Source: Planctomycetota bacterium (GTDB lineage Bacteria > Planctomycetota > GCA-002687715 > DRQF01). From it: 21,363 bases of DNA. Positions 435 to 17,762 of the stretch are shown one piece after another. Where the stretch lies: positions 1-21,363 of the forward strand of contig JAZGFI010000062.1 of NCBI GenBank assembly GCA_036479435.1, written 5' to 3'. Numbering within the stretch: position 1 is the first letter of the stretch; each line of letters begins with the position of its first letter. Position numbers and translations under genes: made by a program. The notes beneath the pieces are model-generated. The model ran no database searches. It saw nothing but the letters and a program-made list of their open reading frames with translations, and was not told the DNA's origin.

Positions 435-1226
435 TTAATGCGATTTCGGGGTTGGCTTGGAAGTTGGTGGTGCGGGTTTCGATGACTTGGGGGCGCCAAA
501 TTTCCATTTGCGATAACGAAAAGTGTGCCGGACCTTGCCCGCCCGGACGATGACGCGAGTCGGCACGGTCCAGCCCGCAAGGTGGACGTGGCTGATCTCG
601 CGGGCGCTCGTGCCGATGCCTGTCGCTGAGGAGGATTTCACCAACCACAAGTCGCCACGTTTTCGGTACTGGTAGCTCACTGCGAAAACCACCCGCCCCT
701 GCGCATCGCAGAGCGCCTGTTTTTGAAGACGGCCTTGCTCGTCGGCCGTGTACAGAGTCGAGCGAATGGGTGCTTTGAGATCTTGGCCCTTGGGGATTGA
801 GAAGCGTACCGAGTTGGGACTCTCCAGGCTTACATGGTGTGACTTTAAGAGGATCTCGGGATCGATGCCGACGGCGTCCGCCATAATCCGTTGCTGCAGC
901 GCGGGATTGATGGGAACGACCTTGCCGGACTTGTCCACCACGACGGTCTTGTCGGCCTTCCAATGGAAGAAAAAGGGGCCTGATGTCGTCACCTGACTCT
1001 CCTTGGGCCGTGCTTCGTCCAGCTGCTCGATGCTGACCTGAAACCGAACTTCCTTAAGACCCGCGATGCGTGGACGGTAGATGAGGCTTGAAAACTTCTT
1101 GAAAACGGCCAAGCCGCGCTCGTCTTGCTTGAGGGTGGGAGCCTTGGTGGTTTTGTCTTCGGCGCCTTTTTCCTGGGCACCAAGACTCAGGCACAGCAGC
1201 GAAACCAGGGCGATGGTCTTGATCAT
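435..1226 (-). CDS. Secreted/periplasmic hypothetical protein
   Basis: Start reassigned to ATG 1226 (GAAAGG upstream). Sec-type signal peptide MIKTIALVSLLCLSLGAQ, a beta-strand-rich basic body and a Pro/Lys/Ser-rich tail. No family recognised. Confidence 0.7.
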   Translation of the reverse strand: MIKTIALVSLLCLSLGAQEKGAEDKTTKAPTLKQDERGLAVFKKFSSLIYRPRIAGLKEVRFQVSIEQLDEARPKESQVTTSGPFFFHWKADKTVVVDKSGKVVPINPALQQRIMADAVGIDPEILLKSHHVSLESPNSVRFSIPKGQDLKAPIRSTLYTADEQGRLQKQALCDAQGRVVFAVSYQYRKRGDLWLVKSSSATGIGTSAREISHVHLAGWTVPTRVIVRAGKVRHTFRYRKWKFGAPKSSKPAPPTSKPTPKSH

Positions 1227-1347
1227 CGGGGGGCCTTTCGGGACATGCACGGCGAATGCGCATAGAGTGGCTTGCGATCAAAAGAGCGTAGCATCTTCGT
1301 TGCTTCTTCCCATGAAGACCGCCCTCGATGTTCCAGCAACGCTCGCT

Positions 1348-1381
1348 TGCTATACTTCGCCCATTCCCCACGCCGAGGAGG
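1348..1381 (+). promoter_or_regulatory. Extended -10 promoter element and RBS of the AhpD-like/kyn operon
   Basis: TGcTATACT at 1348-1356 (TGn plus a near-consensus -10). GAGGAGG at 1375-1381 precedes GTG 1386. Confidence 0.6.
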
Positions 1382-1385
1382 CCCT

Positions 1386-1967
1386 GTGAAGCCAAGTCCT
1401 GCCCTTTTTTACATTCGCACCGTTGACGAATCGGAAGCCCAAGGACCGCTGCAAGCGATCTATGCCGCGAGCCTGAAACGCGCCGGCAAGGTCTTCAACA
1501 TCGTGAAGATCATGAGCTTAAGGCCGCGGCAGATAACGGCCTCGATGAGCCTCTACGAAAACCTGATGCATGGCGATTCTGAACTGACGCGAACCGAGCG
1601 CGAGATGTTGGCGACCGTCGTCAGTCGGATCAACGAGTGCTTTTACTGAACCGAAGCCCACGCACGAGACCTCCGGTCGGAGGTCAAAGACGACCAAGCG
1701 GATTGGGTCGCAAAGATCAAAGAGAGTTTTGAGACCGCCGAACTCAGCCCGCGCCAACGTGCTCTCTGCGAATTCGCAAGAGATCTGACTATGGCGCCTC
1801 AAAAGATGAACGCAACGCGACTGGATCCGTTGCGCGACGTTGGCCTTAGCGATGCCGGTGTCTTGGACGCAACCCAAATCGTATCGTATTTTAACTACAT
1901 CAACCGCGTCGCCGATGCCCTCGGCGTTCCCCCGGAATCTGATTGGGATCTAAAGCATGACCTCTGA
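1386..1967 (+). CDS. AhpD-like / carboxymuconolactone decarboxylase (peroxidase-related) family protein, probable selenoprotein with CxxU (C85, U88), 193 aa
   Basis: GTG start with a strong RBS. ...LTRTEREMLATVVSRINECFY-TGA(1647-1649)-TEAHARDLR... continues in frame through ELSPRQRALCEFARDLT...LRDVGLSDAGVLDATQIVSYFNYINRVADALGV to TGA 1965-1967. Both halves match the AhpD-core peroxidase family, and the TGA sits at the second Cys of the CxxCxxxH motif. Confidence 0.9.
1668..1685 (+). promoter_or_regulatory. Putative bacterial SECIS element
   Basis: Perfect 7-bp stem GACCTCC/GGAGGTC with a G-initiated GGTC loop. 25 nt separate the in-frame UGA from the loop. Confidence 0.75.
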
Positions 1968-3174
1968 TACCAGCACACGCGAAAACCCAAAGCACGACCC
2001 TGGGCTGTTGGCTTGGCGCAAAGAGTTTCCAATCTTGGAAACCACGACCTACATGAACTCGAACTCGCTCGGCGCGATGCCCCGCGGCGTGCGCGACGAG
2101 ATGAACGACTATTGCGACCTCTGGGCGAAGCGCGGCGTCCGCGCTTGGCACGATCGCTGGATTGACTTGGTCGACGAAGTCGCGGACATTTACGCCGATG
2201 TTTTTGGTGCCTCACACGGCTCGGTGTCCATGCACCAAAACGTCGCGATCACCGAGTGGATCTTGCTCTCCGCATTCGACTTCTCCGGCCCGCGCAACAA
2301 AGTCGTTTACACGGACATGAATTTCCCGTCGGTCATGTACATCTACGAAGAGTACCGCCGCCACGGCGCCGTACTTGACGTGATCAAAAGCGACGACGGG
2401 CTCACGGTTGATCTCGACAAGATCCTCGACGCCATCGACGAAAAGACCTTGCTCGTACCCGTGTCTTTGGTGCTGTTTCGCAGCGCCTACATCCAAGACG
2501 CCAAAGCCATCATCGAAAAGGCTCATGCGGTCGGCGCCAAAGTCATCCTCGATGTCTACCAGGGCGCGGGCACCGTGCCGATCGACCTTACGGCCCTGAA
2601 CGTCGACTTCGCGGTCGGCGGCAGCGTCAAGTTTGTCTGCGGAGGGCCGGGAGCCGGGTATCTTTACGTCCGCCCCGATCTCGCCGACTCGCTGGAGCCA
2701 ACCTGCACCGGATGGTTTGCCCACCAGCGCCCCTTCGAGTTCGAAACCGGCAAGATCAAGTGGGCCGATGCGCGCCATCGCTTCAACAACGGCACTCCGC
2801 ACATCCCCGCCATCTACTCGGCGAAAACGGGGATCTCTTTGCTGAAGGAGATCGGCGTGAACCGCATTCGGCAAAACTCTTTGGCCCTCACCGACCGTTT
2901 GATCGCGCGCGGCAAAAAGTACGGATTTGATCTAACCGTTCCCATTTTGCACGCGCACCGCGGCGGCACCGTCGCCTTTGATGTGCCTCACGCCAAAAAA
3001 GTCACCGCCGAGCTTTTGGAACGCGACATCATCGTGGACTGGCGCCCGAACTGCGGCATTCGCGTTTCGCCCCACTACTACACGACTCCCGAAGAGTGCG
3101 ACTTCGCCGTGGATCAAATCAAAGAGATTCTCGACAGCGGAGCCTTCAAAAAACACGGCGACGACCTCTACTAG
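1957..3174 (+). CDS. kynU: Kynureninase-like class V PLP-dependent enzyme
   Basis: Motifs YMNSNSLGAMP, LDVYQGAG, GGSVKFVCGGPGAG (PLP Lys), GWFAH, GTP, RGG and DWRP..IRVSP. Adjacent to kynB. Confidence 0.78.
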   Translation: MTSDTSTRENPKHDPGLLAWRKEFPILETTTYMNSNSLGAMPRGVRDEMNDYCDLWAKRGVRAWHDRWIDLVDEVADIYADVFGASHGSVSMHQNVAITEWILLSAFDFSGPRNKVVYTDMNFPSVMYIYEEYRRHGAVLDVIKSDDGLTVDLDKILDAIDEKTLLVPVSLVLFRSAYIQDAKAIIEKAHAVGAKVILDVYQGAGTVPIDLTALNVDFAVGGSVKFVCGGPGAGYLYVRPDLADSLEPTCTGWFAHQRPFEFETGKIKWADARHRFNNGTPHIPAIYSAKTGISLLKEIGVNRIRQNSLALTDRLIARGKKYGFDLTVPILHAHRGGTVAFDVPHAKKVTAELLERDIIVDWRPNCGIRVSPHYYTTPEECDFAVDQIKEILDSGAFKKHGDDLY

Positions 3175-3175
3175 C

Positions 3176-3805
3176 ATGTCGGGGCGCATCATCGACATCT
3201 CTCAAGCCATAGGGCCCGAAACCGTGGTTTGGCCGGGCGACACGAAGTACTCACAAAAACGAGTGATGGAACTCGACAAATCCTGCCCCTGCAACGTCAC
3301 CACGATCACCATGAGTGTGCACTGCGGCACGCACGCCGATGCACCCCTGCACTACGACGCCGCGGGCTGCACGCCAGCCGAGATGGACTTAGCGCCCTTC
3401 ATCGGTCCTTGCCGCGTCATCGATGTGCAGTCAGACGACGCGATCTATCCGTCTGATTTCGACGACGTCGACCTCGGCCACATCAGACGCCTGATTTTCC
3501 GGACCAAAAGACCGAGCCCCGAAAAGACTTGGCGCGACGACTACGCCTACATGAGTCAAGAGGCGGCCACGGTCCTGGCGGCAGCCGGGGTGCTTTTGGT
3601 GGGGAGCGATGCCGCCAGCATGGATCCGATGACCAGCAAGACCTTGGATGCCCACAAGACCATGAATACCGCAGGGATTCGCTGGCTCGAAAACCTCGAC
3701 CTTTCTCGCGCCCCGGCCGGCGACTACGAACTGATCGCAGCCCCTTTGAAACTCAGCCACGCGGACGCCGCCCCGGTTCGCGCCCTGCTTAGGACCCTCT
3801 CATGA
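3176..3805 (+). CDS. kynB: Kynurenine formamidase (arylformamidase, cyclase family)
   Basis: Start reassigned to ATG 3176, 1 nt after the kynU stop. Motifs IIDISQ, VWPGD, HCGTHADAPLHY (HxGTHxDxPxH), SMDPMTSKTLDAH, LENLDL and ADAAPVRA. Confidence 0.9.
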   Translation: MSGRIIDISQAIGPETVVWPGDTKYSQKRVMELDKSCPCNVTTITMSVHCGTHADAPLHYDAAGCTPAEMDLAPFIGPCRVIDVQSDDAIYPSDFDDVDLGHIRRLIFRTKRPSPEKTWRDDYAYMSQEAATVLAAAGVLLVGSDAASMDPMTSKTLDAHKTMNTAGIRWLENLDLSRAPAGDYELIAAPLKLSHADAAPVRALLRTLS

Positions 3806-4221
3806 CCGACGCCAGAATCATCAATCCGAAAGAATGGCCCAAGCCCATCGGCTACTCAAATGGCGTTGTTGCCTCGGGGCCGATGCTCTACCTCGGCGGC
3901 CAGGTTGCCTTCGATACGAAGGGCGAGGTTGTCGGTGAAGGCGACTTGGTCCTTCAGTTTGAGCAAGTCATGAAGAACCTCCAGACGGTTTGTAAGGCCG
4001 GAGGGTCTTCGCTGAAGGATGTCGTCAAACTGACGATCTTCGTGCAAGACCGCGACGACTACAAAGCCAAGGGGCGCGAACTCGGTGCCGTCTATCGACA
4101 GTATTTTGGCCGGCACTATCCGGCGATGACGCTCGTCGAGGTCGCGCGTTTTTATGAGACAAAAGTCCTGATCGAGATCGAGGGCATCGCGGTCGCTGAC
4201 CGAAGTTGCGACAACGATTAG
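3802..4221 (+). CDS. RidA/YjgF/YER057c family enamine-imine deaminase
   Basis: Motifs PIGYSNGV, LYLGGQV, YFGRHYPAMTLVEV and LIEIEGIA. ATGA overlap with kynB. Confidence 0.92.
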   Translation: MTDARIINPKEWPKPIGYSNGVVASGPMLYLGGQVAFDTKGEVVGEGDLVLQFEQVMKNLQTVCKAGGSSLKDVVKLTIFVQDRDDYKAKGRELGAVYRQYFGRHYPAMTLVEVARFYETKVLIEIEGIAVADRSCDND

Positions 4222-4247: not shown

Positions 4248-6197
4248 CTATTTGATCTCGATCCGATGCTCACAGGCGGTGATTTCGGGAAGCGTCATCA
4301 CCCGCGGCTCACGCCCCTCGACGAAGATCAAGTAGGTATCGACCGTCGATACGAGACCGAAATGGTGGCGGCGGACACTATCAGGGTTCCGAGCGGCACC
4401 CGGAAAGTGACGCAGAACACCCACGACCGTACCGTCCGCCCCGCCATTCATCGCCACCACACACACCTGATTTTGGCTCAGATTTTTGGCTATTGCCAAC
4501 CTCAATTCAACAACGACCTTCAGTTCTTTGATGTTCGTCAAAGTCGGCTCAATCGTTCGCCTGATGACTTCATGGTTCGCCGCGTTGATCTGACGCTCGT
4601 CGATTCGGTGGCGCGGGGAAAAACTCCGCACGCGGTAGTTGCCGGTTTCGCCGAGAGGCACACTAAACTGAGGCCAGTTCTTGTCGACCTGTTCGCGGTA
4701 AACGTGTTCTCCAAATCCGCACACCCGATTCGAATCATCCAAGACCACGCAGGCGGAGTTGAGAGCGTTCCAACTTTGGGGGCTCATCACGCTCAGGTAC
4801 AGATAGGGCAACGACCAAGGTTGGCCCTCGGCCCCTTGGATGCGAAGTTTGCCCTCGTGAGCCTTCCAGATTTGGGCCAGCACTTGGCCGTCCCGCGCCG
4901 CATCGGTCGCCCGAAGATCGAGCGATCTCAGCGAAGAAGAATGCGCCAGGGCGCCTAGAGAAGAGCGATCCTCAAGGTGAATTCCCATCAGTCGCAACGA
5001 GCTCAGCTTTGGGAGACGCAAGATCGCCTCAAAGCTCGCCCGACCCAAACCGACACAGTTGTTCAGTGACAGCTCAGAAAGACCGGTCAGGCCGCCGAGC
5101 TGAGCCCACCCTTCGTCGTCGGGGCCGTCGACGTAAGTTAACCTCAAGGTCTGCAAGGACTCCAGGGAACGAAGAGCCGAAAGCGCCTCGCCTTGAATCG
5201 TCAAAGGTGTGAACCCGTCGCCACCTACTTCCAAGTGGCGCAAGTTTGGCGTCGCCGCCATGGCGGCGATGAGTTCGGTGCCGTCCTCGCTAGAGATGCC
5301 CCCACTGGCGAGGCGCCAAAGTGCCGCATGATTGGCGAGGGGCGCGAGATCGGCGGCTGAAAACCTCAAGTGGTTGAGGCCGAGGCTGCGCAAGTTTGGC
5401 AAGCCTTGGATGAGCGCCGAGATCGTGGGTCCGGAAGCTTGCGTCCCACTGATGTCGAGTGACATCAGCTGCCCCATGTTCAGCAGCTTGCGTAAGCCTT
5501 GGTCGCTGAGCTTGCTGCCCGGCATGACATACTCGGGCTCCTCTCCTTGGGCACCTTCGAATTGAATGGAGGCGGTCTGACCGACAAAGCCCGTAAGATC
5601 GAGCCTGCGAAGCTGAGGCAAGCGAGTGACAACCTCGAGCCCGGCATCCGTCATCACCGGGCATTGGGCCAAACTGAGATCAATGAGCCGCTCGAGTCTC
5701 GCCAGTGGCTCAAGGCCCCGATCTGTTACGTAGGAGCCACTCAGCACAAGGCTCTCAAGCTCAGGGCAACGATCGACAATCTGCTTCAGTTCCGGGTCGG
5801 CGAACTTCTGGCCGTAGACTCTCAGAAATTTCGTCGCCGGAGCTAGCCCCACGATCGCCGCGGGATTCCTCAAGTACACAGGTGGTGATAGCGTGCCGTC
5901 TTCTTCTCCTGAGTCAAAAGCGACATTCGTGGCCGCATTTTGATCCTCGTGAGCGGCCTCTTGGCCCCACCCGGACTCACGCCAGACAAAAGCACCGATC
6001 ACCAGCAGAACAACTGCCGCTGCAGCTAAACCCGACCAAGGGATGTTGCGTCGTGGAGACTTTTTCTCAACCGCTCTTGGCGCAGGTTGGCCCGGGCTCT
6101 CGCCACGAAGAGTCCAAGCCAGGGCCGCATCAATGAGTTTGTCGGCGGCGCGGTCTTGGGCATCGTCGGGCCGAGTGCTGTTTTTGTGCTCGTTCAT
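4248..6197 (-). CDS. Membrane-anchored leucine-rich repeat protein, putative anti-sigma factor (649 aa)
   Basis: Start reassigned to ATG 6197, 2 nt after the sigma stop. Short N-terminal region, one TM helix (WSGLAAAAVVLLVIGAFVW), many LxxLxLxxxxxTDxGL repeats and an unrecognised C-terminal domain. Confidence 0.78.
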   Translation of the reverse strand: MNEHKNSTRPDDAQDRAADKLIDAALAWTLRGESPGQPAPRAVEKKSPRRNIPWSGLAAAAVVLLVIGAFVWRESGWGQEAAHEDQNAATNVAFDSGEEDGTLSPPVYLRNPAAIVGLAPATKFLRVYGQKFADPELKQIVDRCPELESLVLSGSYVTDRGLEPLARLERLIDLSLAQCPVMTDAGLEVVTRLPQLRRLDLTGFVGQTASIQFEGAQGEEPEYVMPGSKLSDQGLRKLLNMGQLMSLDISGTQASGPTISALIQGLPNLRSLGLNHLRFSAADLAPLANHAALWRLASGGISSEDGTELIAAMAATPNLRHLEVGGDGFTPLTIQGEALSALRSLESLQTLRLTYVDGPDDEGWAQLGGLTGLSELSLNNCVGLGRASFEAILRLPKLSSLRLMGIHLEDRSSLGALAHSSSLRSLDLRATDAARDGQVLAQIWKAHEGKLRIQGAEGQPWSLPYLYLSVMSPQSWNALNSACVVLDDSNRVCGFGEHVYREQVDKNWPQFSVPLGETGNYRVRSFSPRHRIDERQINAANHEVIRRTIEPTLTNIKELKVVVELRLAIAKNLSQNQVCVVAMNGGADGTVVGVLRHFPGAARNPDSVRRHHFGLVSTVDTYLIFVEGREPRVMTLPEITACEHRIEIK

Positions 6198-6199
6198 GC

Positions 6200-6712
6200 T
6201 TAGAGGCTCCGTTCGAGGCAAACGCGGATAAGACCGCGCGCCCGTTGCAAGATCGTGGAGACGTTGGAGGTACTCAGGTCGAGGGTCTTCGCGATTTGAT
6301 GTTGGGGTTGGCCTTGGCGATAGAAAAGGTCGACCGCTTGGCTGGCTCGACCATCGAGTTTGCCGACGCATTCGCGAAGAGCCGCGAAGAGAGATTCAGG
6401 ATTGTCGTCGGGTACCAATCGGGTCCAGACGGCTTCGGCGGCATCCGTTTCGAGGATTTCTCGTCGGCGCGATTGCTGCCGGCGTTCGGATACAAAGTGG
6501 TTTTTGGCCGCGGCGCGAAGATAGGCGCTCAAGCCGTCCAAGGAGCGCGGCTTGGCCCGACCGTCAAGAATACGCAGGAAAACCTCGTGGACGAGGTCGT
6601 CTGCCTCAGCGGGGCTCGCCCCCAGGCTCCTGACAAAGAGCCAAACCCCTGGCCGCGCGTCGTCGAGACGTTTTGCCAGAACATCGCCGGTGATTTCTTT
6701 CATGGCTTGCAT
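6200..6712 (-). CDS. ECF-type RNA polymerase sigma-70 factor
   Basis: Region 2 (AEADDLVHEVFLR...SAYLRAAAKN) and region 4 (LRECVGKLDGRASQAVDLFY...IAKTLDLSTSNVSTILQRARGLIRVC). 170 aa. Confidence 0.92.
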   Translation of the reverse strand: MQAMKEITGDVLAKRLDDARPGVWLFVRSLGASPAEADDLVHEVFLRILDGRAKPRSLDGLSAYLRAAAKNHFVSERRQQSRRREILETDAAEAVWTRLVPDDNPESLFAALRECVGKLDGRASQAVDLFYRQGQPQHQIAKTLDLSTSNVSTILQRARGLIRVCLERSL

Positions 6713-7124: not shown

Positions 7125-8462
7125 TCAGGCTTTTGGACGGCTGTCGATGAGGCGCTTGGCCTTTAGCTCGAAACGCGGGAGTTCGCCCGTCGCGACCTCC
7201 TCGACGTTGATGCGCAGACCTTCGTGATTACGCTTGAGATCTTTGGCGAGGCTGGTGCCCAGGGCCGCCGCGTCGATACCGTGATTGGGCAGAAGCTCGT
7301 ACTTGACCGTGATCTCGTCGATGCCACTCTCAGTTCTCCACACGAGAATCTGGAACTCATCGATCTCGCGCGACTCGCGCACGATCGACTCAATCGCACG
7401 CGGGTAGACGTTGGTGCCGCGCACTAAAAGCATGTCGTCAGCGCGCCCCAAAATCCCGCCTTCGTAGAGGTCAAAGGTTCGCCCGCATGAACAGCGATCG
7501 TGCGGAACTTTCTTGACGAGATCGGTCGCGCGGTAACGAATGAGCGGGATCATCCCGCGGCCAAAACTTGTCACCACGCGCTCGCCCATTTCGTCGTAAC
7601 CCAGCGCTTCGTCGGTATCGGGATCGATCACTTCTTCGATGAAGTGGTCTTCAATGATGTGCGTGCCACCGGGTTGTTTTGCACACTCGAACATCATGAT
7701 GGTGCCGATCTCCGTCATCCCTGCGGTGTCGGCGCACTTGGCTCCCCACTTGTCTTCCAACAGGCGCTTGGTGGCGGGGATTGAACCGGCGGGTTCGCCG
7801 GAGACGATGAGTTTGTCTACCGCACTTCCCGGCAAGTCAATGCCCTGCTTCTCGGCTTCAAGCGCCATCCGCAGGGCATAGGTCGGAGTGGCACAAACCG
7901 TCGTGACGTCCATCTCGACGATCTGTCGCACACGGTTCTCGGTGGTCATGTTGCCGGATGGCAACACCAAGGACCCGATCTTTTCGCAGCAGTAATGGGC
8001 GCCCCAAAAGCCGATGAAACTGCCGTAGCTAAAGGCAAAAAACACCGTGTCAGTCGGCCGCACGCCAAAGGCCCAAAACCCGTAAGCCCAACACTCAGCG
8101 ATCCACTGCCAGTCTTTTTTGCCGTCCAAAACCCGCAGCGGTTGGCGACCACTGGTGCCGCTGGTGAGGTGATAACGAATCGCCCGGTCACGGGGTTGGC
8201 TGAGCATGTCACCAAAGATTGGTTTGGCCGCCTGGCTCTCCATCCATGCCTCACGTGTCATGAATGGCAGCCGGCGCAAGTCATCGAGCGACTTGATGTC
8301 TTCGGGGCCGACCTTGGCATCGTCGTAGAGTCTGCGATGAAAGGCGCTCTTGTCGTAGGCGTAAGCGACGAGGCGCTTCAACTTGGCAAGTTGCAAGGCC
8401 TTTAGGTCGTTACGAGAGAGCGTCTCGCATTTGGGGTTCCAATAGGGCTGGGGCTTAGCCAT
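7125..8462 (-). CDS. Phenylacetate-CoA ligase (PaaK) family aryl-CoA ligase
   Basis: Start reassigned to ATG 8462 (GAGGTG RBS). Motifs YWNPxxETLSR, TSGTSG P-loop, SGEPAGS, AGMTEIG, LIRYRATD, GRADDMLLVRGTNVYP and LPRFELKAKR. Confidence 0.9.
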   Translation of the reverse strand: MAKPQPYWNPKCETLSRNDLKALQLAKLKRLVAYAYDKSAFHRRLYDDAKVGPEDIKSLDDLRRLPFMTREAWMESQAAKPIFGDMLSQPRDRAIRYHLTSGTSGRQPLRVLDGKKDWQWIAECWAYGFWAFGVRPTDTVFFAFSYGSFIGFWGAHYCCEKIGSLVLPSGNMTTENRVRQIVEMDVTTVCATPTYALRMALEAEKQGIDLPGSAVDKLIVSGEPAGSIPATKRLLEDKWGAKCADTAGMTEIGTIMMFECAKQPGGTHIIEDHFIEEVIDPDTDEALGYDEMGERVVTSFGRGMIPLIRYRATDLVKKVPHDRCSCGRTFDLYEGGILGRADDMLLVRGTNVYPRAIESIVRESREIDEFQILVWRTESGIDEITVKYELLPNHGIDAAALGTSLAKDLKRNHEGLRINVEEVATGELPRFELKAKRLIDSRPKA

Positions 8463-8469
8463 GTCTAAA

Positions 8470-9651
8470 TCACCTCGAGTCCTGGTCATGACGAGTCTTG
8501 TCTTTACCGACGAGGTCCCGTGCAATGATGATGCGTTGGATGTTTGACGAGCCCTCGTAGATCTCAAGACCGACGATGTCTCTTAGATAGCGCTCAACGG
8601 GAAACTCGTTGTTGTAGCCGCGGCCGCCGTGCAACAAGACGGCCTGGTGACAGGCCTCGGCCGCAGCTTCCGTAGCAAAGAGCTTGGCCACCGAAACGCT
8701 GCGGGTCGCGGGGCGTCCCCTATCTTTGTCCCAAGCGGCCTTCCAGGTCAAGTAGCGGGCGGCCTCCAAGGAACAATGCATGTCCGTGAGGGTCTTTTGC
8801 ACCAACTGAAAGTCCCCGATGCGTTTTCCGAACTGCCGACGCTTCCGCGCGTAGTCAATGCAAGCGTCCATACAGGCCGCGTGAACGCCAACCGCGCCGG
8901 CCGCAACGCCAACTCGTCCGTGGTCGAGGGCGCTCATCGCAATTTCGAATCCCTGCCCCACTTCGCCCATGCGAAGGGAATCGGAGATCTCCAGATTTTC
9001 AAAACGAAAACGTGCGTGTACCGAACCCCGGTGGCCCAGTTCGGGCGCTTCCATTTTTTCGCGGACAAAGCCGGGAAAATCTGTCGGCAGCAAAAAACAG
9101 GTGATACCGCGGTGCTTTTGTTCGGGATCGGCCTGAGCGAAAAGCAAGGCGCAGTCGGCGACCGTGCCGTTGGTAATCCACATCTTGGAGCCGTTTAGGA
9201 CCCAAGCATCGCCTTTCCTCACCGCGCGCGACTTCATAGACGCAACGTCGCTGCCGGCGTCTTCCTCAGTAAGGCCGTAGCAGCCGATCGCCTCCGCCGA
9301 GCAGAGTTTCGGCAACCACTTCTCTTTTTGTTCGTCGCTGCCCCAATCTTGAATGCAGGAAGCGACGAGCCCGGTTTGCACGGCCATAAAGCCGCGAACC
9401 GAAGAGTCTACTTTTCCGAACTCCTCGTAGACCAAGGCCTGGGCGACGTGGTCGAGCCCCAAGCCACCGTAGGTTTTTTGGATGGGCCCACCGAGTAAGC
9501 CGCTCGCGCCAACGGCGCGGATAAGCTCAGGGTCAAACCGCCGCTCCTCATCAGAGGACTTTGCCTGCGGAGCGATGATGCGGGCGGCGACGTCACGGGC
9601 ACGGGCTCGGATTTCCTCGTGCTCTTTGGAGAGTTCAAAGTCGATCGGCAT
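8470..9651 (-). CDS. Acyl-CoA dehydrogenase
   Basis: Motifs GLTEEDAGSD, LNGSKMWITNG, RRQFGKRIGDFQLVQ, HGGRGY and IYEGSSNIQR. Confidence 0.96.
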   Translation of the reverse strand: MPIDFELSKEHEEIRARARDVAARIIAPQAKSSDEERRFDPELIRAVGASGLLGGPIQKTYGGLGLDHVAQALVYEEFGKVDSSVRGFMAVQTGLVASCIQDWGSDEQKEKWLPKLCSAEAIGCYGLTEEDAGSDVASMKSRAVRKGDAWVLNGSKMWITNGTVADCALLFAQADPEQKHRGITCFLLPTDFPGFVREKMEAPELGHRGSVHARFRFENLEISDSLRMGEVGQGFEIAMSALDHGRVGVAAGAVGVHAACMDACIDYARKRRQFGKRIGDFQLVQKTLTDMHCSLEAARYLTWKAAWDKDRGRPATRSVSVAKLFATEAAAEACHQAVLLHGGRGYNNEFPVERYLRDIVGLEIYEGSSNIQRIIIARDLVGKDKTRHDQDSR

Positions 9652-10451
9652 TACCTTCCCTCAAAGCGCGCGCTGCGCTTTTCGCGGAAAGAAGCCAAGA
9701 ACTCGCGATGATCATGGCCCATCAGCATCAAGGCCTGGGCCTGGGCTTCGGCCTCGATGGCGGAGCCGATCTCCATCGTCCACTCGGCGTTGATCATACG
9801 CTTCGTCATACGGATGGCGTAGCCCGGTCCCGCTTTCAAGCGGGCGGCGTATTCTGCCGCGGCAACCATGACTTCGTCCGCCGGAACAACTTTGTTGGCG
9901 AGCCCAATTTCCAGTGCTTTGGCCGCAGACACCGATTCACCGAGCATCAAGATCTCAGTAGCCCTGGCATTGCCAACCACCCGTGGCAACAAGAACGCCG
10001 CCCCCATGTCCGCCCCAGTAAGGCCGACTTTGGCAAACAAAAACGCGATCTTGGCCGCATCACAGAAAACGCGAAAGTCGGCGGCCAAGGCGATAACCGC
10101 TCCGGCTCCGGCCGCGATACCGTTGACCGCCGCGACAATGGGTTTGTCCAGCTCGCGCATGTTTTGAATCAGCTCGCCGGTCATGCGGGTGAAGTCGAGG
10201 ATTTCTTTCATGTCTCGGTTGACGAGATCGCCGATGATGTCTTCAACGTCACCACCGGAGCAAAAGCCGCGGCCGGTTCCGGTAATAACGATAACTTCGA
10301 CATCGTCGCGCTGGCGAAGGTCGTAGAAGCAATCGGTCAGTTCGCGGTAGACATCGAATGTCAAAGCGTTCAGCCGATCGGGACGGTTCAAGATGATGGT
10401 GGCGAGGCCTGATTCGACATCAAAAATGAATTGCTCGTAGGTTTTGCTCAT
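9651..10451 (-). CDS. Enoyl-CoA hydratase/isomerase family protein (type seen in anthraniloyl-CoA clusters)
   Basis: Start reassigned to ATG 10451. Motifs LNRPDRLNALTFDVY, FCSGGDVEDIIG and FLFAKVGLTGADMGAAFLLPRVVG. TAATG overlap with the ACAD gene. Confidence 0.92.
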   Translation of the reverse strand: MSKTYEQFIFDVESGLATIILNRPDRLNALTFDVYRELTDCFYDLRQRDDVEVIVITGTGRGFCSGGDVEDIIGDLVNRDMKEILDFTRMTGELIQNMRELDKPIVAAVNGIAAGAGAVIALAADFRVFCDAAKIAFLFAKVGLTGADMGAAFLLPRVVGNARATEILMLGESVSAAKALEIGLANKVVPADEVMVAAAEYAARLKAGPGYAIRMTKRMINAEWTMEIGSAIEAEAQAQALMLMGHDHREFLASFREKRSARFEGR

Positions 10452-10455
10452 GAGA

Positions 10456-11232
10456 TCAGGGTGCGACGGCACCGCCCGCGACGCCGAGGGCTTGGCCGGT
10501 CGTAGCTCCGGTATTGGGACCGAGAAAAGACATGACCGCCGCGGCAACTTCTTCGGGCGTGACCAGTCGCCCCAAGGGGCTGTCGGAGGCCAAAGCCGCG
10601 ATGGCCGCGTTGCGATCGCAGCCGGTCTTGTCCATGATATTCGCGAGAGTGCGTGCCGTCATGGGGGTGTCGACATATCCAGGACAAACGGAGTTGACAG
10701 TAACTCCAGATGCAGCCAATTCGACGGCCTGGGCTCGTGCGAACCCCAACAGGCCGTGCTTCGACGCGGTATAGGCCGCCGTATAGGCGTAGCCTTTTTG
10801 CGCCGCGGTTGAAGCGATGTTGACGATTCGGCCCCAGCCCGCTTCTTGCATGACCGACGCGGCCGCCCTCGAAAGCTGAATAGCCGCCCTGAGATTGAGC
10901 GTCATCGTGCGATTCCAAAGGTCATCGCTGCTGCGGTGCAAGGGCGCCGACTCCGCGAGTCCGGCGTTATTCACCAAGATGTCCAGACGGCCACATTCCG
11001 CGAGAATCTTGGGCACTAAGGCCGAGGTAGCCACGGCATCCGCAAGGTCGACCGTGAAGGTCAAGGGTCGAGTACCCGCCGCAGAAAGCTCCAAAGCCAG
11101 CTCGTCCAGGGCTTTTTTGTTTCGGGCAACTAAGATGGTTCTAGCGCCTTCAGCCTGTAGCCGGGCCGCAATAGCCGCTCCAATACCACGGCTGGCCCCG
11201 GTCACGAGGGCATGGCGATCAACAAGCTGCAC
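10456..11232 (-). CDS. Short-chain dehydrogenase/reductase (SDR)
   Basis: Start reassigned to GTG 11232 (GGAGGAGG RBS). Motifs TGASRGIG, LVNNAG, NIAS, YTASK (YxxxK) and VCPGYVDT. Confidence 0.94.
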   Translation of the reverse strand: MQLVDRHALVTGASRGIGAAIAARLQAEGARTILVARNKKALDELALELSAAGTRPLTFTVDLADAVATSALVPKILAECGRLDILVNNAGLAESAPLHRSSDDLWNRTMTLNLRAAIQLSRAAASVMQEAGWGRIVNIASTAAQKGYAYTAAYTASKHGLLGFARAQAVELAASGVTVNSVCPGYVDTPMTARTLANIMDKTGCDRNAAIAALASDSPLGRLVTPEEVAAAVMSFLGPNTGATTGQALGVAGGAVAP

Positions 11233-11552
11233 GCGGCCTCCTCCATTTTTCTTTCCTGCCAGGAGGAGACTATCTTTAGGGGGCCCCTTGGTAAAGATGG
11301 TGTAAAGTCTTACCATTTATTCGTTTAAGGACCCCTGCCTCAAATCGCGGCCTTGAGCAAAAAATAATTGTCAGGGAAATCGCCACCACAAGGGCCAGAT
11401 ATTGCGTTCACCAGGTGTGGGCAGAGCCACTCGTTGAGGTCAAGATCGTCGCAACTGGCGAAATAGTCAAAACTTCCGGCGGCGAGTTTTTCGGAATTTT
11501 TGCCATGCGAGAACCCTCAAAGAGTAGAACTTAGGCAGAGAGGGAGGAGAAT

Positions 11553-12203
11553 ATGCTGGGATTCTTGGCGACTTTGGGCCTTTGTTTCTTTTTGTGGCTG
11601 AGCCATCGGGTTTGTCACGCCTACTTGCGCGCGGTGGCGCGCGAAGAGCGCGGCCTGTACAGATTGTCGCAGGCGACAGCCGCTTCCGGCGCGCCAACAC
11701 CGCACAGCCACCTCGGTCCGAAGCTCTTTTTTGTACTCGATCTCATTCTGCTCGCGGCGCTTGTTGCTGGCTTACGAACGTGGCTGCCCTTTTTCGCCAT
11801 CAAAGATCCCAGCAGCATCCAGGCGGGTGCCGAGCTTTTGATGTTCGGATCGGTCGTCATGGGTTTGGGCTTGGTCAGCGAGGGGCGGCTTCTCCAAAGT
11901 TTCTACCAACGCATGATTCGCAGTGTTCGCACCCTGCGTCGCGGCCGCGCAGAGCTGGCATTCGAAGATCAAATCTTGGGCCACGAACGGCATGACCTTA
12001 GGCGCGTCTTTGTTGCGGGCGTCATAGCTTGGACGGCCTTGCCGCCAGTGCTGGCGCTGTTCGGCGTGCGCCTCATCTCAAATGGCACCAGTGAATCTGA
12101 AGCGCTCGCCTTAGTGACCGCCTACTTTGTCTTGCCGCAACTGGCTTTGGGCGCCTATCTCATCAGCGTTGTCCGCCGCGTCAGGCATTCGCTCTACCAC
12201 TAG
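11553..12203 (+). CDS. Hypothetical integral membrane protein (~5 TM helices)
   Basis: GGAGGAG RBS before the ATG. Five hydrophobic segments separated by Arg-rich loops. Confidence 0.72.
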   Translation: MLGFLATLGLCFFLWLSHRVCHAYLRAVAREERGLYRLSQATAASGAPTPHSHLGPKLFFVLDLILLAALVAGLRTWLPFFAIKDPSSIQAGAELLMFGSVVMGLGLVSEGRLLQSFYQRMIRSVRTLRRGRAELAFEDQILGHERHDLRRVFVAGVIAWTALPPVLALFGVRLISNGTSESEALALVTAYFVLPQLALGAYLISVVRRVRHSLYH

Positions 12204-12289
12204 GCTTTCTTTAGGCGATCGACGGACGAAAACGGCGACGCTGGATATCCTCCAGCGCCGCCGTTTTTATTCGTCGATTGCTGTATTTC

Positions 12290-12775
12290 TTAGCTCGGCG
12301 CGGGTTGCAGCTCGCGAAGGCAGGCCTCAACTTTGTTGAGGGTTGCCCGCGACACTCCGTCCTTGCCGTTGACCGTGATCAGACACCCCGAGCAACGTTC
12401 TTCAGCCAGACGCATCAGATCCCTGGAGCCAGGAGCGTCATCAACCCAAAGGAAGGGACGCGTAAAGTCGATACCGGACACCTTGCCGAGCCCCTTGCGG
12501 TAGTCACCGTAACCCACCTTCATTTCGAGGAGGTCCGCGACTTCACGGGCGGCACCCCGCGAAAGCTCCGTCATGAAGACGAGCTGAAAGCGATCGGCGA
12601 TCTCTCGCACAAACTCTTTGGCGAAAGGAACCACGCGAAAACTCGATCCCTCTTGCAGAACCAAAGTCCCGATGATGTCCAAGTACAAGATGGGCCGTTT
12701 GGGCTCCGACCGTGCCGAATCCAGGGCCTTGGAAGCCCCTCCGGCTTGTGGTTGTCTCTTCTTCGTTTGAACCAT
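12290..12775 (-). CDS. HAD-fold-like hypothetical protein (degenerate motif I)
   Basis: ILYLDIIGTL (motif I-like), LVFMT (motif II-like), K in GLGKVSG, and PFLWVDD (motif IV-like). Confidence 0.65.
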   Translation of the reverse strand: MVQTKKRQPQAGGASKALDSARSEPKRPILYLDIIGTLVLQEGSSFRVVPFAKEFVREIADRFQLVFMTELSRGAAREVADLLEMKVGYGDYRKGLGKVSGIDFTRPFLWVDDAPGSRDLMRLAEERCSGCLITVNGKDGVSRATLNKVEACLRELQPAPS

Positions 12776-12861
12776 GGCGCTCTTCTCGTTCCCGTGGCGA
12801 AGTCACACTTTCCTGCATATTAATTCGACCAAGGGTGGCTGAAATCTTGAGTCGCGCGACC

Positions 12862-12893
12862 AAAAGAAAAAGACCGCCTCGAAAGAGACGGTC
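12862..12893 (-). terminator. Intrinsic terminator downstream of the TPR gene
   Basis: Minus strand reads GACCGTCTC-TTTC-GAGGCGGTC followed by TTTTTCTTTT. Confidence 0.85.
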
Positions 12894-12940
12894 CAGATGC
12901 AGTCAAGACAGCGCTTGAGGCCTACTGAGGCCAGCGAGGC

Positions 12941-13432
12941 CTATTCAATTCGAGTCGTGACGCGTGAAAGCGCCACACGAGCCAGCGTGTACTCGGGGTT
13001 TTCCTCGAGCGCCATGCGGTAGAACTCCTCAGAGGCCTCCAGATCGCCCAGTTCCTCGTGGATCTGACCGAGGTTGTAGTAGGCAAAGAAGGGGCAGGCG
13101 TAGCGCGGTGAGCGCAGCGCAGACTCCAGCCAGGGGATCGCCTCTTCGAGCTCACCCTTTTGGATGAGATAGGCCCCAATGTCGTTGTAGGGGTTGCCGT
13201 AGTCCTCGTCGAGCTCGATAGCGCGCTCGCAAAGGGCAATGGCCTCGTCCCATTCCTGACGGAATGAGCGGCACCAACCGTAGAAAGTGAAGGCTTCGGC
13301 GGTCGGATAAAGAGCAATGCTCTTTTGGTAGTAGTTATCCGCTGCCTCCAAGTCACCATCCATCTGGGTCTTGTAGGCCGCTTCAAAGAACTTGATCGCG
13401 GTCGGCTTGCGGTCCTCGTAATTCAGCATCAC
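12941..13432 (-). CDS. Tetratricopeptide repeat protein
   Basis: About four TPR motifs (AEAFTFYG...AIALCERAIELD, PYNDIGAYL...EEAIPWLESAL, AYYNLGQIHEELGD). Start is GTG 13432 or ATG 13429. Confidence 0.9.
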   Translation of the reverse strand: MMLNYEDRKPTAIKFFEAAYKTQMDGDLEAADNYYQKSIALYPTAEAFTFYGWCRSFRQEWDEAIALCERAIELDEDYGNPYNDIGAYLIQKGELEEAIPWLESALRSPRYACPFFAYYNLGQIHEELGDLEASEEFYRMALEENPEYTLARVALSRVTTRIE

Positions 13433-13621
13433 TGGTCTCGTCGTTCGGATTCGGGCATTGGAGTCTTTCGAGATCCAAGCCCCCTCTGCTTTAGACCTGG
13501 GTCTTTCTGCAGCCGAATTTCGAAAAATGCTTAGCCGAACGATGGGTAATACTGCTCTAAAGGTTGCATTTTTTGCCGAACTGATAGGGAACGGTCCCCC
13601 CGAGACCGCCCACCAACGCGT

Positions 13622-14533
13622 CTAGGGGAGTTCCGCACTGCCGGGGATGCGACGGCCTTCGTCGTCATAACGGTAGACGCCCTGCGCGACTTTGCGACCG
13701 AGACGCCCCGCCTTCACCAGGTCGAGGATAATCGGGCAAGGCTCGTAGGTCGCGCCCAAATGCTCATGCAGGTTGCCGAGACTGGCGGCGCGCACATCGA
13801 GGCCGACCAAATCCACGAGTTCAAACGGCCCCATGGGGTGATTGAGACCGAGCTTTAGGGCCTTGTCGATGTCCTCGGGGGACGCAACCCCGGCTTCCCA
13901 CATCCGAAAGGCCTCGTTGCCAATGAGGGCATTGACACGGCTGGTGACGAATCCCGCGGATTCGTTGACCTCGACGGTCTCTTTGCCCATTGCCTTGGAA
14001 ACCGCCTCGGTGACGGCAAAGGTCTCCGCCGAGGTTTTCTGAGACCGGATGATCTCGATCAACTTCATGATGTGAACCGGATTAAAAAAGTGCATCCCAA
14101 TGACCCGGTCCGGGCATGACGTTGCCTCGCCAATCTCAGAAATCGACAGGCCGGAGGTGTTGGAAGCCAAAATCGCGTGGTCGCCCATGAGGGCATCGGC
14201 CTTGGCAAAGAGTTCGCGTTTCAGAGCCATCTTTTCCGGGATGGCCTCGATCATCATGTCCGCACCCGTCAACATCGCATCCAGGTCGGTCGAGATCTCG
14301 AGCCGATCCTTGGCCGCAGCGGCCGTCTTGGCGTCGACTTTTCCCAGCGACACGCCCTTGTCGAGATTGCTATATATTTTGGATTGGGCCCGTTCGAGCT
14401 GATCTTGCTGAATGTCAAACAGGCGGGTCGAAAACCCTCCCATCGCGGCGACCTGGGCGATGCCCAAGCCCATCGTCCCACCACCGACGACGGTAATCGT
14501 TCGGATCTTGCTGATGTCGGTTTTGCTGTTCAT
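13622..14533 (-). CDS. 3-hydroxyacyl-CoA (3-hydroxybutyryl-CoA/PaaH-like) dehydrogenase
   Basis: Motifs VVGGGTMGLGIA, EAIPE, ASNTS, GMHFFNPVH, GLNHPMGPFELVDLVGLD and GRLGRK. Confidence 0.96.
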   Translation of the reverse strand: MNSKTDISKIRTITVVGGGTMGLGIAQVAAMGGFSTRLFDIQQDQLERAQSKIYSNLDKGVSLGKVDAKTAAAAKDRLEISTDLDAMLTGADMMIEAIPEKMALKRELFAKADALMGDHAILASNTSGLSISEIGEATSCPDRVIGMHFFNPVHIMKLIEIIRSQKTSAETFAVTEAVSKAMGKETVEVNESAGFVTSRVNALIGNEAFRMWEAGVASPEDIDKALKLGLNHPMGPFELVDLVGLDVRAASLGNLHEHLGATYEPCPIILDLVKAGRLGRKVAQGVYRYDDEGRRIPGSAELP

Positions 14534-14550
14534 GAGTTAGTCCCTCGTGT

Positions 14551-15315
14551 TCACTTTTTCTTGCGCTCCAAAAAGCGCGTCATGCGTTGACGTTGATCTT
14601 CGGTGTCGAACAAGGTGCCCTGCCCCAAGATCTCGACCATCGCCGAACGGCGGTCAACGGTGTTGACTGCGGCATTTAAGGCGAGCTTGGCGATGCGCAC
14701 CGCGGGGTGGCTTCGCTTCAAGATGGTCTGCATCATTTTGCGCGCCTCGTCGACAACGGTTTCATCGCTGTAGACGTGATTCAACAGACCAATTCGCAAC
14801 GCCTCTTCGGCGCCGATGATCGCGCCGGTGAAAATCAGCTCCCGTGCCATGCCGGGCCCGACCGTCCGCGTTAGACGATGCGGCGCACCGGCCCCGGGAA
14901 TGATGCCGAGCTTCACCTCCGGCTGCCCCATCTGCGCAGAGCGACCGCCCAACCTAATGTCCATTGCGAGCGCCAGCTCACAACCGCCACCCAAAGCGTA
15001 ACCGCGGATCGCCGCGATGGTGGGCCAAGGGAAGTCTTCGATCTTTTGAAACAGCCCGGCATTGATGGCCAAAAAGGCATCTTCCTTTTTCCGTTTCAAC
15101 AGCTCGGAAATATCGGCACCCGCGACGAAGGCTTTGCCGCCCGCGCCGTGGAAAATCAAGCCGCGAACGTCGGCCTTGTCTTTCAATTCGTCCATCGCTC
15201 GGTGCAGCTCTTGCACCATTTCGAGATTGATGGCGTTGAGAACAGCGGGGCGGTTGAGGACCACTTCAGCCCAACCCTCACAGATGTTGATCTCGATGGC
15301 TTGGTAAGCGCTCAT
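14551..15315 (-). CDS. Enoyl-CoA hydratase (crotonase)
   Basis: Motifs LNRPAVLNAI, AFVAGADI, ALGGGCELALAMD and GQPEVKLGIIPGAG. Both catalytic Glu residues are present. Confidence 0.95.
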   Translation of the reverse strand: MSAYQAIEINICEGWAEVVLNRPAVLNAINLEMVQELHRAMDELKDKADVRGLIFHGAGGKAFVAGADISELLKRKKEDAFLAINAGLFQKIEDFPWPTIAAIRGYALGGGCELALAMDIRLGGRSAQMGQPEVKLGIIPGAGAPHRLTRTVGPGMARELIFTGAIIGAEEALRIGLLNHVYSDETVVDEARKMMQTILKRSHPAVRIAKLALNAAVNTVDRRSAMVEILGQGTLFDTEDQRQRMTRFLERKKK

Positions 15316-16340
15316 GGCTTCAAAATGACCTTTCCGAACACGGCGCGTTCTTCGAGTAGTTGGTGGCCGCGAGCGACATCATCTAACTTGAGGACCTCCG
15401 CCACGACCGGTTTTAGTTTGCCCGCACAAAGGTGTCCCCAGACTTCGTGCATCTCACCCATCCCCCCCATCGTCGACCCGAGAATCGAGAGGTTCTTGAA
15501 GAAGATCAGACGAATATCCGAAATTAAAGCGGGATCTGCAGTGGCGCCACAAGTCACGACGCGACCGCCGCGAGCTAAGGTCCGAATGCTCTTCGCGAAG
15601 TTCTCGCCACCGACATGATCCACAATGATGTCAGCGCCACGTTTATTGGTGATCTTCGCGACTTCCTTGCGAAAGTCGGTCTCGCGGTAGTTGAAGGCAT
15701 GGTCTGCGCCAAGCTCAAGGCCACGTTTCACTTTCTCGTCGCTACCCGCCGTCGTAAACACGCGGGCGCCATGCATCTTGGCGATCTGAATCGCCGCCAT
15801 CGACACACCGCTTCCGGCCGCGTGTATCAAGACATCATCCCCAGCCTTGATGCCGCAGCGATTGACGACCATGTGCCAAGCCGTCAAAAACACGAGTGGC
15901 GCCGCCGCCGCGTTCTCGAAGCTCATGTCTTCGGGCATGGGCAAAACATTGCGCGCCGGAATGCACAGAAACTCCGCGTTCGTTCCGTCGCGAGTCTCCC
16001 CGACGATGCCGTAATCGCGGCTCAGGTTGTGTTCGCCGCGCAAGCTCTCCGGCGAAGAGCCATCGCTAAGGCCCGGAGAAATCGCCACACGGTCGCCGAC
16101 CTTGACGTGCCGAACGAGCTCGCCACTGGCATCGATGACTCCGGCGCCGTCACAACCCAACACCAGCGGCAAGGGAAAAGTGTGACCTTCGACCCCTTTG
16201 CGCACCCAGAGGTCGAGATGGTTCATCCCCGCCGCCTTCACCGCGATGCGCACTTCATCCGCGCGAGGCTCAGGGATCGGAATGTCGGCGAATCCCAGAA
16301 CTTCAGGCCCACCGTGCTCTTTGACTTGAACGGCTTTCAC
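15312..16340 (-). CDS. Medium-chain dehydrogenase/reductase (zinc-ADH-like / quinone oxidoreductase family)
   Basis: Motifs HGGPEVL, NHLDLW, LGCDGAGV, VLIHAAGSGV and FGKVIL. GTG start at 16340. Confidence 0.92.
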   Translation of the reverse strand: MKAVQVKEHGGPEVLGFADIPIPEPRADEVRIAVKAAGMNHLDLWVRKGVEGHTFPLPLVLGCDGAGVIDASGELVRHVKVGDRVAISPGLSDGSSPESLRGEHNLSRDYGIVGETRDGTNAEFLCIPARNVLPMPEDMSFENAAAAPLVFLTAWHMVVNRCGIKAGDDVLIHAAGSGVSMAAIQIAKMHGARVFTTAGSDEKVKRGLELGADHAFNYRETDFRKEVAKITNKRGADIIVDHVGGENFAKSIRTLARGGRVVTCGATADPALISDIRLIFFKNLSILGSTMGGMGEMHEVWGHLCAGKLKPVVAEVLKLDDVARGHQLLEERAVFGKVILKP

Positions 16341-16341
16341 T

Positions 16342-17190
16342 TCACTCTCCCCTAAACTCGGGGCGACGCTTTTCGTTGAAGGCCAACATCCCTTCCTTCG
16401 CGTCGTGGCTTTGGAACAACTGTTGTTGAAGCTCGCGCTCGAAAGCCAGGCTTGGTTCGAATGCCATTTCGGAACCGCTCACACAGGCCCTCTTGATCAG
16501 GCCCACAGCTTTTGAGGCTTTCTGCGGCGAGACGAACTGCTGCGCGCGCTCCAGGACTCTGTCGAGGAATCCGGCGCGGTGGTCGGCGCCCTGCGTTTCG
16601 GTCCCGCCATTGCCCTCGTCGCCCGACCCCACGCCGCAGTCGATCAAGTCGTCGATCAAGCCCGCCTCCTTAGCGGCGGCGAAATTCATATTGTCACCAC
16701 TGATCATCAGTTTCAGCGCCTTCGACCGGCCGACGAGCCGCAGCAGTCGCTGGGTTCCTCCGGTGCCGGGTAAGACCCCCAGATGGACCTCCGGCAGACC
16801 GCATTTACCACCGTGCTCTTTGGCCCAGCGCAGGTCGCAGGCGAGGGCAATCTCCAAGCCACCGCCGACACAATGACCATTCAACGCTGCAATCGTGAGT
16901 TTTGGCGTTTGCTCGAGACGACTCAGAGTCTCGTTTGCGTGCAGGCAAAAGTAGTATTTGAAGGCGGGGTCAACCTCCTGAAGCATCTGAATGTCGGCGC
17001 CGGCGCAAAAGAACTTGTCTCCGTCGCCGGTCACCACGATGACCTCGACCTCGGTGTCGAACCGAGCCTTCAAGATGGCTTCGTCTAAAGCCAACATCAT
17101 TTCGTGGGTGTAAGCGTTAGCCGGCGGATCGCTCAGCGTCAGGACGGCGATCTTTTCGTGGATTTCGTAACGAACAAGTTTTTGGGACAT
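16342..17190 (-). CDS. Enoyl-CoA hydratase/isomerase family protein
   Basis: Motifs FFCAGADI, NGHCVGGGLEIALACD, GLPEVHLGVLPGTGGTQRL and EKRRPEFRG. Confidence 0.93.
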   Translation of the reverse strand: MSQKLVRYEIHEKIAVLTLSDPPANAYTHEMMLALDEAILKARFDTEVEVIVVTGDGDKFFCAGADIQMLQEVDPAFKYYFCLHANETLSRLEQTPKLTIAALNGHCVGGGLEIALACDLRWAKEHGGKCGLPEVHLGVLPGTGGTQRLLRLVGRSKALKLMISGDNMNFAAAKEAGLIDDLIDCGVGSGDEGNGGTETQGADHRAGFLDRVLERAQQFVSPQKASKAVGLIKRACVSGSEMAFEPSLAFERELQQQLFQSHDAKEGMLAFNEKRRPEFRGE

Positions 17191-17735: not shown

Positions 17736-17762
17736 GCGCGATGAAGTTCCTGGTGGCCGGAT

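Follow-up and report, generated by a model that had tools for sequence, protein, structure and literature searches.

A Predicted AhpD-like Selenoprotein Gene with an In-Frame TGA, Upstream of Kynurenine-Pathway Genes in a Planctomycetota Bacterium

The Locus and Its Genes

The DNA considered here, called the window throughout, is a stretch of 21,363 nucleotides of contig JAZGFI010000062.1, from a Planctomycetota bacterium whose genome (5.47 Mb) is 92% complete. Near its beginning lies a gene predicted to encode an AhpD-like selenoprotein, followed on the same strand by genes of the kynurenine pathway (Table 1).

Table 1. Features of the AhpD-like gene and the genes that follow it (positions are those of the window).
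Feature	Position	Strand	Basis or remark
Shine-Dalgarno-like GAGGAGG	1375..1381	+	4 nt ahead of GTG; seen in sequence, putative function
AhpD-like (TIGR01926) selenoprotein gene, predicted	1386..1967	+	GTG start, TGA stop 1965-1967; translation, profile, model
Active-site helix pair E73, C85, Y87, U88, H92	1602..1661	+	invariant columns; residue set as given in PMC3141380
In-frame TGA, predicted selenocysteine 88	1647..1649	+	TGA at the same codon in homologue loci
Bacterial SECIS hairpin, predicted	1668..1685	+	7-bp stem, GGUC loop; fold, covariation, codon constraint
58-aa C-terminal fragment, annotated as a separate gene	1791..1967	+	exact sequence in protein collection; artefact of the split
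Kynureninase-like gene kynU	1957..3174	+	PF00266 and PF22580; TIGR01814 146.6 bits, below the 246.4 cut-off
Arylformamidase (kynB) and Rid-family genes	3176..4221	+	TIGR03035 230.5 bits, over the cut-off of 223.05; PF01042

Read from the GTG, which is taken as the putative start, the frame has 87 codons, the in-frame TGA, 105 sense codons (1650-1964) and a terminal TGA; in close homologues the start is mostly 81-84 codons ahead of the Sec codon. Under translation table 11 the open reading frame is instead 1272..1649, ending at the in-frame TGA. The product read with selenocysteine has 193 amino acids, with ECFY-U88-TEAH at its active site (YFNYINRVADALGV). The last 11 nt of the AhpD-like gene are also the first of kynU, ATG included, so that the stop of the one overlaps the start of the other, and kynU has no clear Shine-Dalgarno sequence. 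The AhpD-like gene, kynU, kynB and the Rid-family gene probably form an operon; kynA is on another contig, C153. Between 1100 and 4400 no sigma-70 promoter-like site was found, and terminator-like sites were at chance level (5 vs 3.9).

The rest of the window holds other kinds of genes. A tRNA-Trp(CCA) is found at 274-347. At 435-1250 (-) is a divergent ORF of 271 amino acids that begins like a signal peptide and matched nothing in Pfam; 6 of 7 loci from the same family have a homologue of it (24-28% identical) at the equivalent position. Beyond the kynurenine genes, 4248-6712 (-) encodes an ECF-type sigma factor and then a leucine-rich-repeat protein of 707 amino acids, which has a single hydrophobic segment and, its N-terminus being anti-sigma-like, may have an anti-sigma role. 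An acyl-CoA degradation cluster occupies 7125-17190 (-), comprising a CoA ligase-like gene, an acyl-CoA dehydrogenase, three enoyl-CoA hydratases, a 3-hydroxyacyl-CoA dehydrogenase and an SDR, and a ribbon-helix-helix and PIN-like pair is at 17337-18005 (-).

A Frame That Continues through TGA

An earlier note on this DNA, made from the letters alone, had proposed one frame across the TGA, encoding a 193-amino-acid protein with Sec88 and with the TGA at the second Cys of the family motif, and every one of its coordinates was upheld by translation. Its further claim, that the 105 sense codons beyond the TGA complete an AhpD core, was borne out by the TIGR01926 profile, to which the read-through protein scored 162.1 bits against a cut-off of 81.8 over profile positions 2-177 of 178, and by conservation of the downstream half in homologues. 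Taken separately, the N-terminal half scored 58.4 bits and the C-terminal half 84.7. In a hexamer model trained on the genome both halves came out as coding (0.26 and 0.22), and the two alternative frames of the 3' half as non-coding (-0.48 and -0.90). Contigs of two of four sequencing runs (X2 and X4) span the stretch with zero differing letters, an agreement that is not independent since both runs are possibly the source of this DNA; runs X7 and X8 do not contain the codon. The AhpD-like gene is almost certainly one continuous gene, in which the TGA at mid-gene encodes selenocysteine.

The Selenocysteine Machinery of the Genome

The earlier note had made its proposal depend on the Sec machinery, and selA, selB, selC and selD were all present in the genome. 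In a genome profile search each scored over its cut-off: selA with 463 bits, selB with 323 bits (together with a same-frame match to positions 495-579 of the C-terminal profile), and selD, which has an in-frame TGA of its own, with 372 bits. The selC tRNA-Sec, with a TCA anticodon, scored 67 bits, likewise over cut-off. The selA, selD and selC genes are clustered on contig C117.

Signs of further selenoproteins were seen. An AhpD-like paralogue with CHY-TGA and 32% identity lies at G000:C201:8660-9196 (+), with the hairpin CGGCGC-GGTCT-GCGCCG 18 nt downstream; its orthologues keep the TGA and mostly the GGTCT loop. Genome-wide, a Cys is found three residues away from 27 of 537 coding-flanked TGA codons, against 5 of 552 for TAG and 6 of 390 for TAA, and a hairpin is present at 18 of the 27 TGA codons with a nearby Cys. 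At least six long thioredoxin-like genes have W-U-[GP]-P-C (on C112, C170, C181, C211, C263 and C290), and the hairpin ACGAGC-GGTC-GCTCGT is identical in five of the six. Other UGA contexts are, to judge by their motifs, putatively FdhA-, MsrA-, deiodinase- and peroxiredoxin-like. Judged by its sequence, the genome is selenoprotein-rich.

Codon 88 among Homologues

Whether homologues have TGA or Cys at this codon, and whether they conserve the half beyond it, had been singled out in the earlier note as the telling comparison, and the outcome went its way on both counts. A search for related loci with the single protein gave no matches, and with an alignment the loci were recovered. Among 61 genomes, 36 of which had matches, 45 of 46 matches contain TGA. 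Where the position was checked, TGA stood at codon 88 in 30 of the 30 best loci, the window locus among them, and in 9 of ten further loci, the tenth having TGT (G041). The selA gene is in all 35 TGA-bearing genomes of the 61; in the sole Cys-only genome, G041 with its TGT form, selA, selB and selD were not found.

Among the homologue matches in this genome and 200 relatives of the phylum, 107 of 109 contain TGA, a count of the presence of TGA whose codon position was not checked match by match. A hand cross-tabulation of these 201 genomes placed the TGA form in 82 of 152 selA-positive and 3 of 49 selA-negative ones. Among the selA-negative TGA genomes, G080 has selB and selD, and G140 has selB and a 68.8-bit tRNA-Sec. 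In G121 (90% complete, in 140 contigs) selA, selB and selD were not found despite two TGA copies, which lie at C69:7370-7900 and C104:31848-32372; it is the one unexplained exception, for which an assembly gap may be responsible. In another genome, a TGA-bearing AhpD-like gene and selA are 60 nt apart on opposite strands (G122:C15:64551-66226). Across GTDB, TGA was at codon 88 in 80 of 80 loci, these being the best 80 of 595, from the Acidobacteriota, Actinomycetota, Chloroflexota, Planctomycetota, Latescibacterota and others. All of these TGA counts are biased to the Sec clade, as the profile was made mostly from TGA-bearing rows and the best matches were taken, and they are not independent, as the genomes are related. 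A Cys-containing homologue, P0006 (CFYCTEAHGEDLR), sits among the Sec rows in a tree made by a quick method, in which 9 of 50 branches are well supported and from which no order of events is claimed; it is possibly, if weakly supported as such, a Sec-to-Cys reversion.

The SECIS Hairpin

The hairpin that follows the TGA, GACCTCC-GGTC-GGAGGTC, has a 4-nt loop, 7 bp, a spacing of 25 nt from the UGA to the loop and an energy of -11.6 kcal/mol. All of these values agree with the bSECIS consensus, given in PMC13188914 as a loop of 3-9 nt with G in the first two loop positions, a stem of 4-16 bp, a spacing of 16-37 nt and an MFE of -7.5 or lower. The earlier note was right about the coordinates, the 7 bp and the spacing of the hairpin, which by itself does not go beyond chance. 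Folding energy was rejected as evidence for a SECIS, the z-score being -0.33 to -1.27 in five windows, and the consensus rule has a background of about 5% in this genome, being satisfied downstream of 44 out of 903 ordinary TGA stops and of 82 out of 1500 Cys codons in frame. The rule combined with a GGTC loop is satisfied at 4 of the 903 TGA stops and 1 of the 1500 Cys codons.

Since the energy is unremarkable, the support for a SECIS comes from conservation. In 29 distinct rows, with the helix tested being the structure derived from the first row, the 7-pair helix is paired in 84.7% of 203 cells; 14 cells show a double change, and the covariation score is 0.206. None of 500 shuffles reached the values for pairing, double changes and covariation, and slid controls were 31-55% paired; there are only 3 covarying pairs, a number that 38 of 500 shuffles reach. 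The stronger test is that of synonymous variation, made over 108 distinct loci. One pair of the stem is C-G 73 times and U-A 23 times. CTC accounts for 95 of the 99 Leu codons at +8, against 40% elsewhere in the same genes, and the loop Arg at +9 is CGT or CGG in 95 of 95, with CGC in none of the 95 against 48% elsewhere in the same genes. The codon bias at +8 and +9 is, as read from these alignments, selection on the RNA, yielding the G[G/U] loop of the bSECIS model as set out in PMC13188914. The RNAalifold consensus is weak (-1.22 kcal/mol, 4 pairs) and the innermost seventh pair is present in about 31 of the 108 loci; from the alignment, the hairpin of the family appears better described as one of up to 6 bp with a C-G-[G/U]-NNN loop. 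Loops of GGTCT are also found in selD, in the C201 paralogue and in a gene of the same genome that is, to judge by its motif, putatively FdhA-like.

Fold and Active Site

Besides TIGR01926, the protein matched the TIGR00778 core domain (33.2 bits vs 27.8), and it missed the cut-offs of NF041238 (86.5 vs 175 bits, over profile positions 152-337 of 357) and of the YciW-related (seleno)protein model NF053654 (22.1 vs 310 bits). The best solved relatives are 6K40, 3C1L, 2OYO, 2PFX and 2PRR. C85-F-Y-U88 aligns with the CVYC, CYYC and CLYC of 6K40, 3C1L and 2OYO, and the TGA is thus opposite the second Cys of CxYC. An AlphaFold2 model, for which the input was a 44-row alignment with Sec entered as Cys, is all-helical, with a pLDDT of 94.6, and superimposes on 6K40 with a TM score of 0.87, an rmsd of 1.7 A and a Z of 25.0. 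E73, C85, position 88 and H92 are invariant in the 44-row alignment; one locus containing N (L026) was left out of alignment A3. Among 22 database homologues, 6 have Thr at position 85 and keep Cys88. As modelled, the Sec protein possesses the AhpD-like helical fold with its E/C/Y(H)/C(U)/H relay. Of the name "AhpD-like peroxidase" that had been given to the gene in the earlier note, the first part stands, with TIGR01926 over its cut-off, while the peroxidase part is borrowed from relatives only.

The Kynurenine Neighbourhood

In loci of the same family or order, kynU is within 1.6 kb of the AhpD-like gene in 14 of 19, downstream on the same strand in 12 and divergent in 2; the remaining 5 have short flanks. 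Relatives have a gap of 900 nt between the AhpD-like gene and kynU. The gene that usually fills it is transglutaminase-like, with PF13369 in 3 of the 4 ORFs scanned, and its initial assignment as kynA was wrong. The PF13369 gene of the relatives was not found in this genome, where the AhpD-like stop and the kynU ATG are left overlapping by 11 nt. Outside the order, kynU was near the gene in 0 of 10 loci, and across phyla in 1 of 80 (the best 80 of 595), that one being from a same-family genome; these counts led us to reject a functional tie to kynU in general. A literature search found no link between kynureninase and AhpD. The adjacency, to judge by gene order, is most likely inherited.

Mechanism and Alternatives

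The reading that we favour, at a probability of about 0.9, is that the one gene encodes a 193-amino-acid, all-helical AhpD-like selenol oxidoreductase with a predicted Sec88. The conserved frame across the TGA, the conserved hairpin and the full Sec machinery are established by sequence and comparison; by the established bacterial mechanism, SelB-dependent decoding of UGA 1647 as Sec88 would then be expected with very little doubt. SelB-GTP carrying Sec-tRNA(Sec) would bind the apical G[G/U] loop 25 nt downstream, and the bound complex would decode UGA 1647 as Sec88. In the enzyme, the Sec88 selenolate would be the attacking nucleophile, activated by a relay of E73, H92 and water, and would reduce a peroxide or hypohalite-type oxidant; Cys85 would resolve the oxidised Sec88 to a selenenyl-sulfide, from which the enzyme would be restored by a donor of the lipoyl or thioredoxin type. 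Attack by Sec88 is suggested by the homologues with Thr85 and Cys88, and by M. tuberculosis AhpD, whose second Cys is reported as the exposed, attacking one (PMC6626918). The same source describes the first Cys of B. thailandensis AhpD as mattering more than the second, and the attacking position is thus not universal.

Two readings would do without selenocysteine. That the halves are translated apart as two genes, or that a nonsense codon has made a pseudogene of them, agrees with the presence of exact 87-aa N-terminal and 58-aa C-terminal fragments in the protein collection, where 2 of 4 window pieces were looked up; the earlier note had foreseen such a split by automated annotation. The C-terminal half alone is also barely over the TIGR01926 cut-off, a start-type codon stands at most 2 codons from the TGA in 11 of 108 homologues, and G121 has no detectable sel genes. 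Yet the break would fall in the catalytic helix, between C85 and H92, and a restart at the first in-frame ATG past the TGA, codon 136, would drop residues 89-135. In 97 of the 108 homologues a start is lacking within 4 codons, in the 80 best loci the stop is TGA without exception, and the codons past it are under constraint at the RNA level, all of which makes a split or broken gene very improbable. The other reading, in which TGA is read as Trp in a recoded genome or is a sequencing error, has in its favour the W found at position 88 in 6 of the 7 closest full-length database homologues (P0002-P0005, P0007 and P0008). These W88 homologues, however, sit on contigs of about 1 kb, and the W is probably a spurious Trp from code-4 miscalls of TGA. 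As TGA is the commonest stop in this genome, ending 903 of 2031 long coding-like ORFs, the genetic code is not reassigned; the only tRNA in the genome with a TCA anticodon is tRNA-Sec, and the TGA recurs in more than 100 genomes. On these sequence comparisons the Trp or sequencing-error reading is effectively refuted. With selenocysteine the annotation is corrected, the 87-aa and 58-aa database fragments belonging to one gene.

As to function, reduction of peroxides or hypohalous oxidants by Sec88, with Cys85 resolving, seems the likeliest role, by analogy with three relatives: DR1765, whose mutant is reported as H2O2-sensitive, with its CxxC of importance for complementation (PMC8945050); PA0269, with the same Tyr in its relay, described as only a weak peroxidase acting on H2O2 (PMC3141380); and RclX, reported to protect against HOCl and HOSCN. 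The main alternative, tentative yet deserving to be kept in view, is that the selenoprotein reduces not peroxide itself but the disulfides of a partner such as a peroxiredoxin or Ohr/OsmC, as mycobacterial AhpD does. AhpD is reported to reduce AhpC, and in Corynebacterium OsmC (PMC8945050), the second Cys of AhpD forming a mixed disulfide with AhpC (PMC6626918), and the genome has many thioredoxin- and peroxiredoxin-like UGA genes; against this, neither ahpC nor another peroxiredoxin or partner gene was found among the 24 window ORFs scanned, and M. tuberculosis AhpD is structurally far (Z about 11, 7-8% identity) by comparison with DR1765 (Z 25). Far less probable is a role of the Bmp8 kind, in selenol-based reductive dehalogenation or some other tailoring step linked to tryptophan or kynurenine catabolism. 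Bmp8 shares the fold and is proposed to debrominate by oxidising its cysteines to a disulfide (PMC5577590), and kynU is nearby in the 14 family or order loci. But the identity to Bmp8 is 14-16%, against 32% to DR1765, kynU was near none of the 10 loci outside the order and only 1 of the 80 across phyla, and where present it is divergent in 2 of 14 and usually has another gene between. In its wider form, equally improbable, the selenoprotein would serve kynurenine-pathway catabolism as a Bmp8- or deiodinase-like dehalogenase of halogenated tryptophan or anthranilate intermediates, and/or kynU translation would be gated by selenium. Given the overlap of stop and start and the lack of a clear kynU Shine-Dalgarno sequence, only ribosomes that read Sec would reach kynU and couple to it; if this were true, selenium supply would gate tryptophan catabolism.

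Relation to Known Systems

The gene is a member of the AhpD-like selenoprotein family with CxxU, which has been catalogued since 2005, and is nothing different in kind. The 2005 Sargasso survey reported 27 sequences of an "AhpD-like protein" (COG2128, CXXU; PMC1088965), the 2008 GOS survey 299 AhpD-like selenoproteins (PMC2398784), and a 2026 review lists an "AhpD-like protein, TIGR01926, CxxU" (PMC13188914); the family also serves as the worked example of BSepDB (PMC13326102). Among the titles and abstracts examined, none concerned the biochemistry of a family member with Sec, and a search for a selenoproteome study of Planctomycetota gave nothing on the subject. The family is abundant, and this clean case, which combines a strong hairpin with a fold like that of DR1765, would be a sensible choice for a first assay.

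With this family ("AhpD-like 1") the gene has in common a TIGR01926 score over the cut-off, CxxU, an in-frame UGA with a downstream bSECIS, and Cys homologues; particular to it is only the local context, kynU-kynB-rid with the overlapping stop and start. The literal CFYUT motif is shared with the alkylhydroperoxidase-related (seleno)protein NF041238 (AhpD_rel_CFYUT), of whose 357-position model the protein here does not have about the first 150 positions, and it is not a member. The debrominase Bmp8 (6OHI/6OHJ) has the same fold and a similar length (Z 18.6-18.8, profile E 4.4e-07), and there is no bmp-like cluster here. M. tuberculosis AhpD has the same spacing in E118/C130/H132/C133/H137, with Tyr here in place of His132 (PMC3141380), yet differs in topology and has ahpC as its partner, which is not beside the gene here. 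In PA0269 the spacing of E36/C48/Y50/C51/H55 is identical to that of E73/C85/Y87/U88/H92, according to the residues given in PMC3141380. Closest of all are Deinococcus radiodurans DR1765 (6K40), named COG2128 in PMC6300522, and 2OYO, 2PFX, 2PRR and 3C1L, which have the same fold (Z 24.4-25.0), 27-32% identity and the same E/C/Y/C/H set, and from which the predicted protein differs in having Sec rather than Cys at the second position.
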